Source: Chloroflexota bacterium
GTDB lineage: Bacteria > Chloroflexota > UBA11872 > VXNJ01
Assembly (NCBI GenBank): GCA_965261345.1
Contig: OZ253449.1
Coordinates: forward strand, 832,001 to 896,000
Length of the DNA: 64,000 nucleotides
Direction of reading: 5' to 3'
Made by a program: the position numbers and the translations under genes. Shown piece by piece: positions 38,518-44,606 of this stretch (the stretch's first letter is position 1; each line of letters starts with the position of its first letter). The notes under the pieces are model-generated. The model made no database searches. It saw only the letters and a program-made list of their open reading frames with translations, and was not told the DNA's origin.

Positions 38518-38593
38518 GGGCCCATAGCTCAGTGGTTAGAGCGGCCGGCTCATAACCGGTTGGTCGTTGGTTCGAATCCAACTGGGCCCACCA
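38518..38593 (+). tRNA. tRNA with CAT anticodon, most likely tRNA-Ile2 (lysidine)
   Basis: GGGCCCA...TGGGCCC-ACCA acceptor; GCCGG-CT-CAT-AA-CCGGT anticodon arm; body resembles Ile2 rather than Met. Confidence 0.9.
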
Positions 38594-38870
38594 TGACCTA
38601 CCGAATTCATAACTCGCCCGTTCAGAGCGATTTTGCGACTTCGGCTCCCCTCCTAGGGCTTTGTCCATCCGGCGTGGGTACGGAGTAGGCGATGGCGCCC
38701 CTGCCGGGCTTGGCCATAACCTCCTTGGCGAAGGACCCGACGACGGCTTTGGTCTCGGTCAGTTCGCTGGTTTTGAGGAACTCGCTCATCTCGGCGGCGA
38801 AGGTGGTGGTGGTGTCGGAGCTGGCCAGGACCCGACGCCGCTCCGTCAGCTGGCCTCGCGCTTCTGATTA
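38594..38870 (-). pseudogene. C-terminal remnant of a probable large serine recombinase (integrase)
   Basis: Minus-strand translation EARGQLTERRRVL...FAAEMSEFLKTSELTETKAVVGSFAKEV...AIAYSVPTP, then after a frameshift IALNGRVMNSVGHGGP running into the tRNA. Family recognised from memory only. Confidence 0.55.
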
Positions 38871-38879
38871 CCACCACCT

Positions 38880-39520
38880 GCTGGCCTCGCGTACACACTC
38901 TGCCACATGGCTCGCGGCGAAATATCCGGCGTGAGCCAACGTCAATCTGCGACTCCGCCCCGGTCGTCTCTTCGGCCTGCCCGACCATCGGCATCAGCAG
39001 GGCATTGACATTGGCCTGATCCAACACGTCCACGGCGGTGACCAACATGCCGGGTGCCCCTCTTCCGTCTCCATGGGCGGGACCACATCCTGGGCGGTGT
39101 AGCCGGCAACGGTACCCTGTCCGCTCTCCATCAGTCGGAAGTTTGTGTCGCTTCTGACTCCCAAAATCGGCCATCGCTTGCCCCACCGATTCTTCTCAAG
39201 GCCTCCTTGTCGGCCAACTCCTCTGGCAAACGGGCAGCAGAAACGTCTTCTCCCGCTTCGTTTTTCTGTGCCTCAAGGTCGGCTATCACCTTATCCAGGC
39301 GCTCCAACAGCCCTCTCAGTCCTTCGGCATCATTGCTCCTTTTCGCTGAGGCGTTGGCGGCTACCTTCGTGCCATCCACCGCCTGGACCGCCAGATCAGC
39401 CACATCCATGACCACCGGGATGCGCACCGTCCGCTCAAGCAGCTTCCTAATAGCCTGTCGATGGCGTTTGTAGAACCGCCACAGGGTGTTGCGGTCAGGA
39501 TGCTGCCACCCGTGATCAAC
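38880..39520 (-). mobile_element. IS1182-family transposase pseudogene fragment
   Basis: PDRNTLWRF...AVDGTKVAANAS and AHAGY (degenerate ADAGY) segments with frameshifts. Confidence 0.7.
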
Positions 39521-39549
39521 GACTTTGAGATTTGCCGGTCCCGTTGCCT

Positions 39550-41178
39550 TGCCTCACCAAAAAATGTAACCGAAATTTGGGACCGTTTATTTGACTCCGA
39601 TTGGCGCGATTTCACTTACGATTTCGGCGTTCTCAACCGCACCATCAGCACCGTTTACGACCCCGTATACGAGCTCTTTGGCCATAACCGACCGCCATTG
39701 CTTTGAGCCTGCGCTGCAACGTCCGCAGCTGCTTGGGACCGACAGCGTCGGGATGGTTGCGCATGAGTACTTTCAGGATCCCGGTGCCGCTGGCGTCGGG
39801 ATGATCCTGCAGGTAGCTAAGCACCTCGGGCCATATGTGCTCTAGGGGATCTCTACGCGTTCGCCACCAGATACGGCGTTTACGCTTGGGACTCCGGGTG
39901 GGATTGGCATCGCCCTCGCGCCAGAGGTGAGAGAGCCTGGCCAGGAATTGCGACAGATCGTCTCTTTGTACCTTGCTGCGTTCCTTAAGGCGATGCCAAT
40001 GTGGCCAGGGCCGACTGGGCCGCTCGGATCTCGCTAAGGAGCAAGAGCGGATCCAGTTGCAAGCGCGTAGCACGCAATCGCTCCTTGACCTTTTCGGCAA
40101 CAGCGGGATGATCAAGCAGTCGCTGGCAGGGAGTTAAGGGACGGTCGTAGCGCTTCAGGGTCCTGGCCCCGTATCGCTGCTTGGAGATCAGTTTGAAGGA
40201 CGGTTGGAAGAAATTGGTGTAGAGACCAACTAAGGCAAAGAGTCGGGCCAGGGTCTGTCCGGCGATGAATCCGGCAAAGCGTTCGTAGCCGGCAAAGCGC
40301 TCAGATTACGGCGCCGTTCTTCTGTTCGATGAAGGCCTGGTCATTGGAGCGATAGGCACGTGAGCGGGTGAACTCGATTTCACGCTGCTGGCAGTAGTCG
40401 ATAAGAGTCTGGGAGATGAAGGCGCTGTCGTTATCTTTAGTCGTCCGAGCACTGGAATCGGCAACCGCCCGCCTATAACCTCAAGCGCCTCGGTCACCAG
40501 CGTCTGCTCGCGGGCTAGCAGCGGGACTGCTTCAACCCAGCCCGAGGCAACGTCGGTAACTGACAGAGTCTGGATGAAGCTCCCGGCCATGTTGCCACCA
40601 CAATGGGCCACCAGGTCTATTTCCAGGTAACCGGGTTGGGGGCCATGCCAATCGGCAAACGTCCTGATCGGGACCTTGGCGTGATGACGGTTGCGGCGGC
40701 AGGGATTTCGCCGTCGGCTGCTGCCGGCGATCTTGCGCACTGGTTTGAGCATCCGATCGATCGATGCCGGGCTGATTGCGAGCAGCTTGCTTCTAAGGTC
40801 CAGATCAAGCTGCAGGTGGCCATGCCCTTCCAGTGATTCGATCAGGCTGGGCAATATCGCTTGCAATCGTTTGCCGCAGATGCGATCGGCTGCTTCCCTT
40901 AAGGACGATCAAGGAGTCCCTGACGGCCTCGTCGTAGATGCGGTATGAGGACTTGGTGGGCGGTGCCGGATCAGGGCTTGCAGCATTGCCCAGTATTCGG
41001 ATTGCGTATTTGCGGTTGTAGCCGCTAAGGGCTACGAATTCGTCCAGAATCGCGCCCTTGTCGCTCTTGGTCGAGCGCGCATAGCGGTCCTGCAACGCGG
41101 TCAGTATTTCCTTCCGCGCCGCCCGGCTCAGCTTCTTTCCTCGCATCGGTTGCCTCCCTATGGATTTGGGTTACAAAT
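39550..41178 (-). mobile_element. ISNCY-like element with frameshifted integrase-core transposase
   Basis: ORF pieces 40805-41146 (RY...K..ILDEFVALSGYNRKYAIR), 40306-40866 (PGYLEIDLVAHCG...TDVASGW) and 39645-40115 (WRTRRDP...QLRTLQRR). Inverted end motifs TGTAACCGAAAT (39565-39576) and TGTAACCCAAAT (minus strand, 41164-41175). Confidence 0.75.
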
Positions 41179-41298
41179 CTTGTATGTTGGCAATGGGTAG
41201 TCCGGGTGCAGCGGACCGCACAAATCTCGGTCCGCTTTCGCGGGACCGTTCACTAGCATGGGTCGCCGCACCCGGCTCCCGCGGCCAATTACCCGAAC
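41179..41298 (+). ncRNA. IS110 left end with bridge-RNA-like target-binding loop (copy A, truncated)
   Basis: Begins CT-TGTAT; stem CCGGGTGC/GCACCCGG encloses guide ACAAATCT, hairpin CGGTCC..GGACCG and guide CACTAG; homologous to 43272-43383. Confidence 0.75.
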
Positions 41299-43232
41299 GT
41301 TCGCGGTAGGAACACCGGTTACCCGGTGCCCCCCGCACGGATCCCGGCGTGCGCGTTAACGCACCGGGCTCTTAGCTTGAGTGTTTGACGGCAAAACGGT
41401 CGGCGGGCCATGGGTGGAGGATGGAGACGGTTGGGAGATGGGCAGTGCTCAATGCGCGCAGGCGCCCCCATGGGAATCGATCATGCTGCGACCGGCGGCG
41501 CAGGCTGCGTAACCACTGGCGCTCGAGTTCATATTTGAAACTCCTCAGGTACGTGGAGCTGGTTGGGACGGCGTAATAGCCGAGCCAGCCCCGCAGCACC
41601 AACCCGAGCCATTGCCCGGTCTGCGCGGGCGTCGTGCATGCGCATGCGTAGTCGTTCCTTGATCGCCTTCAGGGTGCGTCTGACGCGCTTGGCGATGGGC
41701 TTGCGTCCCAGTCCGAACTTTCCGTTGCTCATCGTCCGGCAGTAATGCGTTAGGCCGAGGAAGTCAAAAGTCTCCGGACGGCTGTCGTTACGCTGGCGGC
41801 GATTCTCGATCGCGTATCTGCCGAACTCGATCAGGCGGGTCTTGTGGGCTGCAAGCTCTAATCCGTACTCTTCTAGCCTGTCTCGCAAATCCTTTGCAAA
41901 TCTGACCGCATCGCTGCGGTACTCAAATCCCAGGACGAAGTCATCGGCATACCTGACGATGTAGACCTCGCCGCTGGCCCTTTTGGGTCGCCATTCCTTG
42001 GCAAACCATGAGTCCAGGACTTTGTGCAGGTACACGTTGGCAAGCAGCGGCGATATCGGCGCCCCTTGCGGTGTTCCCTGCACGCTGTCGGATAGTTCTC
42101 CGGCTTCCATTACTCCGGTGCTCAGCCATTTGCGGATTAGGCGCAGGACGCGGTTGTCTCCGATTCGCTCTCCCAGGAACGAGATGAGTCGCTCGCGGTC
42201 GAGATGGTCGAAGAAGCCTTTTATGTCGGCGTCAAGAATCCAGTTGACTTTTCTCCGTTCGATGGCGTAGGCCAGGGCGTCCAGCGCGTCGTGCGCTGAT
42301 CTTTTTGGCCGGAACCCGTATGCGAACCCGGCGAACTCCGATTCATAGATCGGGTCAAGGATCTGTTGACACACCGCCCGCTGCAGGATCTTGTCCTCTA
42401 TGGATGCGATTCCAAGCGCTCGCTTCCCGCCGTCCGGTTTGGGTATCGCTACCCGCAGGACGGGGGTCGCTCGGTATGCTCCTTTGTGCACGCGGTCTTT
42501 AAGGTCGAGAAGTTTCTCTTCCAGGTTTTCCTCGTACATCCTCCACGTGATCCCGTCGGCGCCGGGAGCGGCATTGGGTTTTAGCCCGTAGAACGCATCC
42601 CTTAGCGCGTCAAGGTCTATGTGGTGTAAGAGCGCGGTGAGTTTTCCCTCTGGGTTCTCTTTGGCGTGTTGCCGTACGCGTTCGGCTCCGGGTGACACGG
42701 GAACCCACCCCTGGGTGTAGTCCGTGCCGGTGCCTGGCGCGTTCCTCTTGCTTGCGGCCCTTTCCTCCGGCGGCTCCGCCGGGGTTTTACGCCCCATTGT
42801 TCGCCGCCTTCGCAGGTACTATGGCCGCATCAGACTTCTGCACATCGTGCATCATCGGCTACGGATACCTCCTTCCCGATGCGGCCCCGGATCTGCGAGT
42901 GAACCGGGGTAATGCGCAGATCTCCCAGTTCCCGGCCCGGGACTTACGTACGTACATGAGTTCTTTGACACCGTCGAGCCCGGCTGACGGCTGGCCATCT
43001 ATTGCCGCCGCCGGTGTTGCCTTCGACAAGATCAAGAGTCTCGGCGCTCGGATCGTCGACAAACCCGATGTTTCGGTGCTCCATAGCTCTGTCCGCACGC
43101 TCCGCTACCGACGCTTCACGGGTAACCTCGCGGTTACCCGCGCACGGCTCGCGGGCTGATGTGGGCTGGCTCTCGCCCTTCATCCCGGGAGACTTTCACT
43201 CCTTGTCCTGGTACCAGTTGGACTGGCTGTTC
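41299..43232 (-). mobile_element. group II intron (bacterial class E/F-like)
   Basis: Domain V GAGCCCGGTGCGTTAACGCGCACGCCGGGATCCGTGCGG and domain VI ending CCTACCGCGAAC at 41299; domain I motifs (GAGTGAAAGTC, GAGCCGTGCG, GAAGCGTCGG) near 43100-43210. 5' boundary approximate. Confidence 0.85.
41372..42797 (-). pseudogene. ltrA: group II intron reverse transcriptase/maturase, frameshifted in domain X, no endonuclease domain
   Basis: APGADG, IPKPDG, YGFRP, DADIKGFFD, GTPQG and YADD motifs. C-terminus continues in another frame (LRGWLGYY...LRRRSQ...LHPWP). Confidence 0.85.
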
Positions 43233-43271
43233 TGATCTGTTCGGGCGAGTACTTTCTTTTCGGGCTGTCCC

Positions 43272-44606
<1,335 letters not shown>

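Follow-up and report, generated by a model that had tools for sequence, protein, structure and literature searches.

A truncated IS110-family left end carries a bridge-RNA target-binding loop whose guides match a subterminal repeat of another insertion sequence in a Chloroflexota genome

We investigated an insertion of one mobile element into another in a 64,000-nt stretch of the genome of a Chloroflexota bacterium (the window, meaning the whole stretch analysed, is G000:C1:832001-896000, and G000 is a single-contig genome of 2.39 Mb). In this window, a degraded copy of an insertion sequence (IS), named here ISX, is cut by LE_A, the first 118 nt of a left end of the IS110 family. LE_A contains the 5' part of a bridge RNA with a complete target-binding loop; its left guide repeats the adjoining ISX flank, and its right guide predicted five bases that were lost at this locus and are kept in seven sister copies of ISX. 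We consider it about 87% probable that the parent element, IS110-A, was inserted into the ISX site by bridge-RNA-guided recombination and later truncated. The features concerned are as follows.

39513..41180, minus strand: ISX, a degraded, frameshifted copy of an IS of about 1.7 kb with an rve-type DDE transposase (sequence comparison with genome copies)
39554..39576, plus strand: far-end subterminal repeat of ISX, TCAC-N-TGTAACCGAAAT (read directly from the sequence)
41160..41180, plus strand: left half of the targeted ISX repeat, …GGATTTGGGTTACAAATCT, with the left target at 41172-41178 and the CT core at 41179-41180
41181..41298, plus strand: LE_A (fold, alignment and covariance model)
41203..41217, plus strand: outer stem of the target-binding loop, 5' strand, pairing with 41261-41274 (consensus columns 24-38 / 84-97)
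41219..41227, plus strand: left target guide CACAAAUCU, the same as the top-strand left flank plus core
41228..41248, plus strand: inner hairpin of the target-binding loop, CGGUCCGC UUUC GCGGGACCG (single and consensus folds)
41249..41256, plus strand: right target guide with core complement, UUCACUAG, predicting top-strand CT-AGTGAA (intact ISX, CT-AGTGAG)
41261..41274, plus strand: outer stem of the target-binding loop, 3' strand (consensus structure)

The target-binding loop of LE_A

LE_A begins with TGTATG at 41181, directly after the CT core. The octamer ACAAATCT, which at 41173-41180 comprises flank and core, is found again at 41220-41227, and TCACTAG lies at 41250-41256. The predicted fold presents a long stem around an internal loop and a small hairpin, with an energy of −57.7 kcal/mol (z = −4.06) that was equalled by none of 200 shuffles, and the two guide motifs, of 8 and 7 nt, are placed on opposite sides of one internal loop.

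LE_A was aligned with 11 other left ends, five from G000 and six from four congeneric genomes, all of which precede DEDD transposase genes. The consensus fold of the 12 sequences has 19 pairs, 7 of them with compensatory changes on both sides, while the variable columns 40-48 and 72-79 are bordered by invariant bases, including AGC at columns 78-80. A covariance model was built from ten left ends, with LE_A and a sibling copy in the window (IS110-B) left out. Searched against the 64-kb window, it gave its best match at 41181-41305, that is LE_A, with 106 bits and an E value of about 1e-25; the IS110-B copy reached 83 bits and no further credible match was obtained. In Rfam 15, at gathering thresholds and at E up to 1, no bridge-RNA family matched LE_A. 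An sX15 match seen at E up to 1 was sub-threshold and on the opposite strand, and it was taken as chance.

The first-pass annotation of this locus, made from the sequence alone, had given the positions of the CT core, the repeated ACAAATCT, TCACTAG, the far-end ISX repeat and the break at 41298, all of them correctly, and the covariance search that it had proposed returned LE_A as the best match in the window. It had also ascribed a TGTAT start to IS621-type left ends. Such a start is found in 10 of the 12 related left ends here, but it was not found for IS621 in the text consulted.

These data assign LE_A to the IS110 subgroup, as a long non-coding left end, homologous to bona fide IS110 ends, right after a CT core, and its loop, with stem, internal loop, inner hairpin and covariation, is of the IS621 bridge-RNA type. 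What the window does not hold for this copy is a downstream IS110 recombinase gene (DEDD RuvC-like and Transposase_20 domains), a donor-binding loop matching its own ends, or a right end. The sibling IS110-B carries both domains, and its donor loop ACAAUUGCU equals its right end ACAATTGCT. The cut in LE_A falls, in the left-end alignment, exactly where the left donor guide begins in the siblings. LE_A is thus a fragment of IS110 origin and not a whole member. Its likeness to IS621 is one of mechanism and layout, and no sequence relatedness to IS621 is implied.

The targeted site in ISX and the guide rule

In IS621, as described by Durrant et al. (2024, PMC11208160), the left guide corresponds to the top-strand left flank plus the CT core and the right guide complements the core plus the right flank. 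The left guide of LE_A, CACAAAUCU, matches the flank TACAAATCT at 8 of 9 positions, and at 6 of the 7 that lie outside the core. Over the 12 aligned left ends, the cognate matches at these 7 positions were 6, 2, 6, 4, 6, 5, 3, 1, 4, 4, 1 and 5 (mean 3.9), against a mean of 1.9 for 100 non-cognate guide/flank pairs, none of which reached 6. LE_A is among the best guide/flank matches of the set.

The right guide of LE_A predicts CT-AGTGAA, of which the right side has been lost from the window. Seven uninterrupted ISX ends elsewhere in G000 read ...GGGTTACAAATCT/AGTGAGGCAAC (the slash marks the insertion point here and below) and, over a longer distance, ...GGATTTGGGTTACAAATCT/AGTGAGGCAACGGCCCTGTTTGGGTTACAAAAACAGTGAGTCAATGCGC, after which their flanks diverge. 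The right guide is thus complementary to the core plus 5 of the 6 following positions of intact ISX, the match stopping after AGTGA with G in ISX at the place of the predicted A. The 13-mer ACAAATCTAGTGA occurs seven times in 2.39 Mb, always at the targeted ISX position, compared to about 0.07 occurrences expected by chance (our own estimate), and allowing one mismatch adds only one non-ISX locus and one ISX variant. The targeted site is also present in ISX copies of two congeneric genomes. With the guides of LE_A the intact ISX site scores 8/9 on the left and 5/6 on the right, and with four other guide sets at most 4/9 and 2/6.

The sibling IS110 lineages of G000 confirm the guide rule, imperfectly. 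The guides of lineage B score 8-9/9 on the left and 3-5/6 on the right at five of seven B sites, and those of lineage C 7-8/9 and 3-4/6 at all three C sites. Non-cognate combinations of guide and site score much lower, except for two B copies. One is the copy in the window (B_win, 43274-44606), with 7/9 and 5/6 for the guides of lineage E against 4/9 and 2/6 for its own; the other is b14 (G000:C1:14041), with 8/9 and 5/6 for the guides of lineage F against 4/9 and 2/6 for its own. This misfit suggests either trans-guiding by the target loop of a sibling or a later exchange of left ends.

Besides the window copy of ISX, G000 has at least nine others, full or nearly so and with 88-90% identity to it, two of which keep the whole 518-aa transposase gene (526-codon open frame). 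In Pfam, this protein matches only the rve integrase-core domain (E 6.6e-9). In NCBIfam, the only profiles matched are IS481, IS3 and IS21, all far under cut-off, the best being IS481 with 39 bits against a cut-off of 224 bits, and more than 5000 homologues are named at most 'transposase family protein'. Neither Pfam, NCBIfam nor the homologue names yielded an IS-family name for ISX.

Read in the transposase sense, the targeted end of ISX consists of the terminus, repeat 1 (CTCAC TGTTTT TGTAACCCAAAC), repeat 2 (CTCAC TAGATT TGTAACCCAAAT), 32 nt and the ATG. Repeats 1 and 2 are direct subterminal repeats of this transposase-proximal end, and it is the inner one, repeat 2, whose variable spacer holds the IS110 site, 49 bp inside the terminus and 32 nt upstream of the transposase start. 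Repeat 1 and the far-end inverted repeat (TCACCAAAAAATGTAACCGAAAT at 39554-39576) have no core and are not predicted targets. In the window, the IS110 insertion interrupts ISX at 41180, and the last 49 bp of this copy are gone. An insertion at this site parts the transposase gene from the outer end and should disable the ISX copy concerned.

Two further observations were made on ISX. Among its copies in G000, G002 and G003 (L014-L023), repeat 2 varies: the core CT is changed to CC, AGTGA to AATGA, TGTGA or TGTGC, or a scar form is present. Moreover, a 26-nt module, TGATCMRCGACA...CCGG, closes the transposase-distal side of nearly all ISX copies (e.g. window 39513-39538; G000:C1 257728 onward), and only some of them have it in inverted form after the other end, which reflects either two forms of ISX or the landing of ISX in a palindromic repeat.

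The same position in ISX bears additional traces attributable to the IS110-A lineage. In each of two different ISX ends there is an orphan right end of IS110 type, ...GGGTTTGACTTTTGACACGGTTGCT. The one at genome position 1299106, on the minus strand, abuts /AGTGAGGCAACGG (CT/AGTGA) and reads ...TTGACTTTTGACACGGTTGCT/AGTGAGG, and the one at 1602257 abuts /AATGAGGCAACGG (CT/AATGA), continuing as /AATGAGG. Both keep the last ~35 codons of an IS110-type recombinase C-terminus, 77% identical to B at the DNA level, and they finish in bases similar to the right end of L002, which at 76% identity is the closest LE_A relative and whose donor guide is ACGGTTGC. Three other ISX ends, two in G000 and one in another species, carry scars of the form CT-TGTATGTT(GGCAATGGG)-, in which CT is followed by 8-17 nt of the start of LE_A (TGTATGTT..., TGCATGTT... 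and TGTATGTTGGCAATGGG) and then by ISX sequence. From their sequence, these scars are read as probable deletions between the similar octamers GGCAATGG of the left end and GGCAACGG of ISX. By eye, a joined right end and left end would read TTGACT, 17 nt and TATGTT across the core, which would correspond to the junction promoter across joined ends that PMC11208160 describes for IS110 circles.

The earlier annotation had interpreted the guide as preserving host-IS sequence since deleted here, with AGTG following ACAAATCT in intact copies, and this proved correct, as the seven uninterrupted ends read ACAAATCT/AGTGAGG and AGTGA... is missing from the window. Insertions of the same lineage at unrelated sites would have spoken against it; both right-end junctions and all three scars lie at one ISX position. 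Its description of the IS110 as a specific parasite of an ISNCY terminal repeat holds for the location in an ISX end, but the site is subterminal, 49 bp inside, and no curated ISNCY profile of Pfam or NCBIfam matches ISX; as this IS110 copy is a dead fragment, 'parasite' describes the past only. The far end at 39554-39576, to which it had drawn a resemblance, is the inverted counterpart of the targeted repeat; only one end of ISX carries the site.

Truncation, sibling lineages and alternative readings

LE_A is a fossil: at 41298/41299 it is broken off by a group II intron of opposite orientation, which accounts for its lack of donor loop, recombinase and right end. The remaining features of the locus are:

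38518-38590, plus strand: tRNA
41299..43232 (end approximate), minus strand: group II intron with a reverse-transcriptase open reading frame at 41529-42797 (RF02005 141.9 bits; RVT_1 E 1.9e-36)
43233..43273, minus strand: IS3-like left end fragment (~40 nt) and orfA start, with a CT core at 43272-43273
43274..44606, plus strand: IS110-B (B_win), a degraded sibling IS110 with a full bridge-RNA left end (domains and left-end alignment)

Positions 41299-41310, gttcgcggtagg, correspond in reverse complement to the intron 3' end common to all nine intron copies. On its 5' side, the intron is joined to the start of an IS3-like orfA, the usual 5' exon of the intron subfamily (4 of 9 copies), and not to IS110-A; the two intron flanks in the window are not contiguous with each other. 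The segment 43233-43273 is that exon here and, at the same time, the left flank of IS110-B. Both junctions are spanned by contigs of public runs that belong to several studies (41180/41181: X1 record 3, X8 records 22-23 and X9 record 30; 41298/41299: X1 record 3, X8 record 24 and X9 record 31), so the arrangement is real and no assembly artefact. No sequence beyond the junctions was provided by these contigs, so that the missing part of IS110-A is not supplied by them. None of the runs listed for the stretch is an RNA run.

The following history is proposed. IS110-A would once have inserted at ACAAAT-CT-AGTGA in the inner ISX repeat, its bridge RNA being presumably made and guiding the recombination. 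The multi-copy ISX would have been its landing pad, because the 13-mer exists only in ISX in G000. The left end would later have been invaded by a group II intron in opposite orientation. A second copy of the intron, carried by an IS3-like element, probably recombined with it and so removed the donor loop, recombinase gene and right end of IS110-A, together with the terminal 49 bp of ISX. A deletion between two intron copies appears to be the simplest route to this arrangement.

Several points weigh against this history. No intact IS110-A was found, LE_A being unique in G000, and in 61 related genomes the best LE_A relative is 76% identical and carries other guides. The exact two-guide pattern gave one match in genome_contigs and two in metagenome_contigs, all in coding DNA, without IS110 ends and attributable to chance; such scans need exact matches, and these collections may leave out the window's own genome. 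Three of the 12 left ends (B_win, L003 and L009) match their own left flank at no more than 2 of 7 non-core positions, and the right-flank matches among relatives are often partial. The five further traces may come from fewer events, considering that the scars share one structure and that the 655896 locus and the window have 78% identity in their flank. As LE_A lacks the donor loop, the two orphan right ends are placed in the IS110-A lineage through resemblance only. As to the junctions, the left pattern was found in 57 genomes of the order only as the scar in G002, and the right pattern in 19 genomes of the family gave a single match outside G000, a chance one in a coding region.

Other observations concern the surroundings of LE_A. 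The intron family has nine copies in G000, that of the window and eight further ones, and it appears to home to an IS3-like orfA start, …AAGTACTCGCCCGAACAGATCA/TCAACAAGC. Other intron copies lie inside IS110 transposase genes, and a 17-nt remnant of the intron 5' region is located within the right non-coding end of IS110-B (44522-44538). X8 record 24 matches the window from 41255 through the LE_A/intron junction and its preceding 79 letters are unlike the window; it may represent a LE_A relative in which the guide region differs but the intron junction is shared. Window positions 38611-38845, which separate the tRNA from ISX, are 78% identical to G000:C1:656321-656089, which adjoins a decayed ISX end with a scar at 655896, and the two loci may be old duplicates.

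The sibling lineages also occupy other mobile elements. The main B copies (G000:C1 41473, 20706, 813509, 159109 and 268256; L038) are inserted at CCTGTACCT/TTTAAAG-like sites that lie across the left boundary of another IS110-family element, one with a left end of ~340 nt and a DEDD transposase of 412 aa; lineage B seems to be aimed at the insertion junction of that element. In lineage C (G000:C1 1301419, 147490 on the minus strand, and 818268), the guides are AACCCCGCU and CT-ACGGCA, and the insertions lie in an IS3-like orfB, at its conserved ...CCCCGCT/ATGGCTACAAGCGCATC stretch, once within another IS110 gene and once at a third locus. Two left ends, L029 (G000:C1:147400-148650, minus strand) and L009 (G006), contain a second copy of their own left end, and in E_148 the self-insertion falls exactly after its own left guide, CAATCCCCT. 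L029 and L009 look like cases of self-targeting of guide-encoding DNA.

A wider reading of the locus, which we hold to be rather unlikely, would regard these lineages as a guild in which every member has another mobile element as its programmed target: the ISX repeat for A, the IS3-like orfB for C, the left end of an IS3-like element for E and for the window copy of B, and the left junction of the further IS110-family element for B. Target loops would act in trans or be interchangeable, so that siblings could be retargeted by an orphan loop like LE_A, and the altered ISX sites (TGTATGTT scar, CT to CC, AGTGA to TGTGA) would be escape forms in an arms race between IS.

It is also improbable, to a marked degree, that the orphan LE_A is transcribed at present and that its target loop works in trans with the recombinase and donor-loop RNA of a sibling, steering siblings into ISX ends. 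Separate target-binding and donor-binding loop RNAs do support IS621 recombination in vitro, according to PMC11208158, intact B transposase genes exist, and B_win and b14 fit the guides of E and F better than their own. However, that pattern can also arise through an exchange of left ends between copies after insertion, all seven perfect ISX sites in G000 are empty, no B, C, E or F element lies inside an ISX end, and LE_A lacks the adjoining right end on which the natural promoter depends.

There is very little probability that ISX is mere by-catch, the true target of IS110-A being some other sequence and ISX a fortuitous or off-target match. Guides tolerate mismatches, off-target insertions of IS621 are documented in PMC11208160, and on the right the match extends over 5 nt only, ISX reading AGTGA-G in place of the predicted AGTGA-A. 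Nevertheless, the seven exact 13-mer sites are all in ISX, with the two one-mismatch additions given above, and all six traces of the lineage are at the targeted ISX position. A chance resemblance of the ACAAATCT repeat and of TCACTAG to ISX, devoid of function, is hardly credible: the motifs are short and the genome is repeat-rich, but they occupy the homologous guide columns of a conserved, covarying loop, the observed match was reached by 0 of 100 non-cognate pairs, the blind prediction of five further bases came true in seven ISX copies, and the guide/flank relation in sibling elements contradicts chance. The guided insertion of IS110-A into ISX is the reading that we retain.

Comparison with known systems and significance

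Going by its title, a 2003 study by Partridge and Hall reportedly deals with the targeting of transposon ends by IS4321/IS5075. Like these elements of the IS1111 subgroup, IS110-A belongs to the superfamily of DEDD-transposase elements and is site-specific, in one orientation, for the end of another transposable element. IS4321/IS5075 have subterminal inverted repeats, a seekRNA downstream of the transposase gene and, as host, the terminal inverted repeat of a Tn3-family transposon; in contrast, the RNA of IS110-A lies upstream and its host is an rve-type IS, struck 49 bp inside the end. IS110-A is not a member of the IS1111 subgroup because its guide is upstream of the gene, as the guide loop is in all 11 siblings; no subterminal inverted repeat was seen either in examining this membership. 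The IS4321 target is mentioned in PMC11187229.

The closest mechanistic counterpart is IS621 of the IS110 subgroup, for which PMC11208160 and PMC11208158 (Hiraizumi et al. 2024) describe a non-coding RNA upstream of the recombinase gene, an internal loop with left and right guides, a CT core, a promoter that can form across joined ends and a repeated sequence as target, all of which recur here. Unlike IS621, whose target is a REP element, IS110-A is directed to a subterminal repeat of another IS; only the target loop survives in LE_A, and its right guide seems to pair with 5 nt in addition to the core, where IS621 pairs 4 bases. A multi-copy, selectively neutral repeat is also the landing site of ISPa11, ISPpu9/ISPpu10 and the IS1111-attC group, as described in PMC11187229 and PMC12288879, but those targets are host repeats (REP) or integron sites (attC), not another IS. 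Our literature search gave nothing specific on IS110-subgroup elements aimed at the end of another IS, although the supplementary target tables of PMC11208160 and PMC11187229 may list some. As targeting of transposon ends is already known in the superfamily through IS4321/IS5075, IS110-A is a further example, added from the IS110 subgroup.

The known mechanism is left unchanged by this finding. Two features stand out, the successful blind prediction made with a relic guide and the dense stacking of targeted mobile elements nearby. The locus offers a natural check of the bridge-RNA rule, in which the guide of a dead fragment predicted five bases that are lost at the locus and kept in seven sister copies. 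Since this prediction was correct, such guides can be used as a record of lost target sequence, to annotate the past targets of IS110 relics. In the small genome of G000, a number of RNA-guided elements are stacked together with group II introns, and this organism is a possible natural system for bridge-RNA cross-talk.

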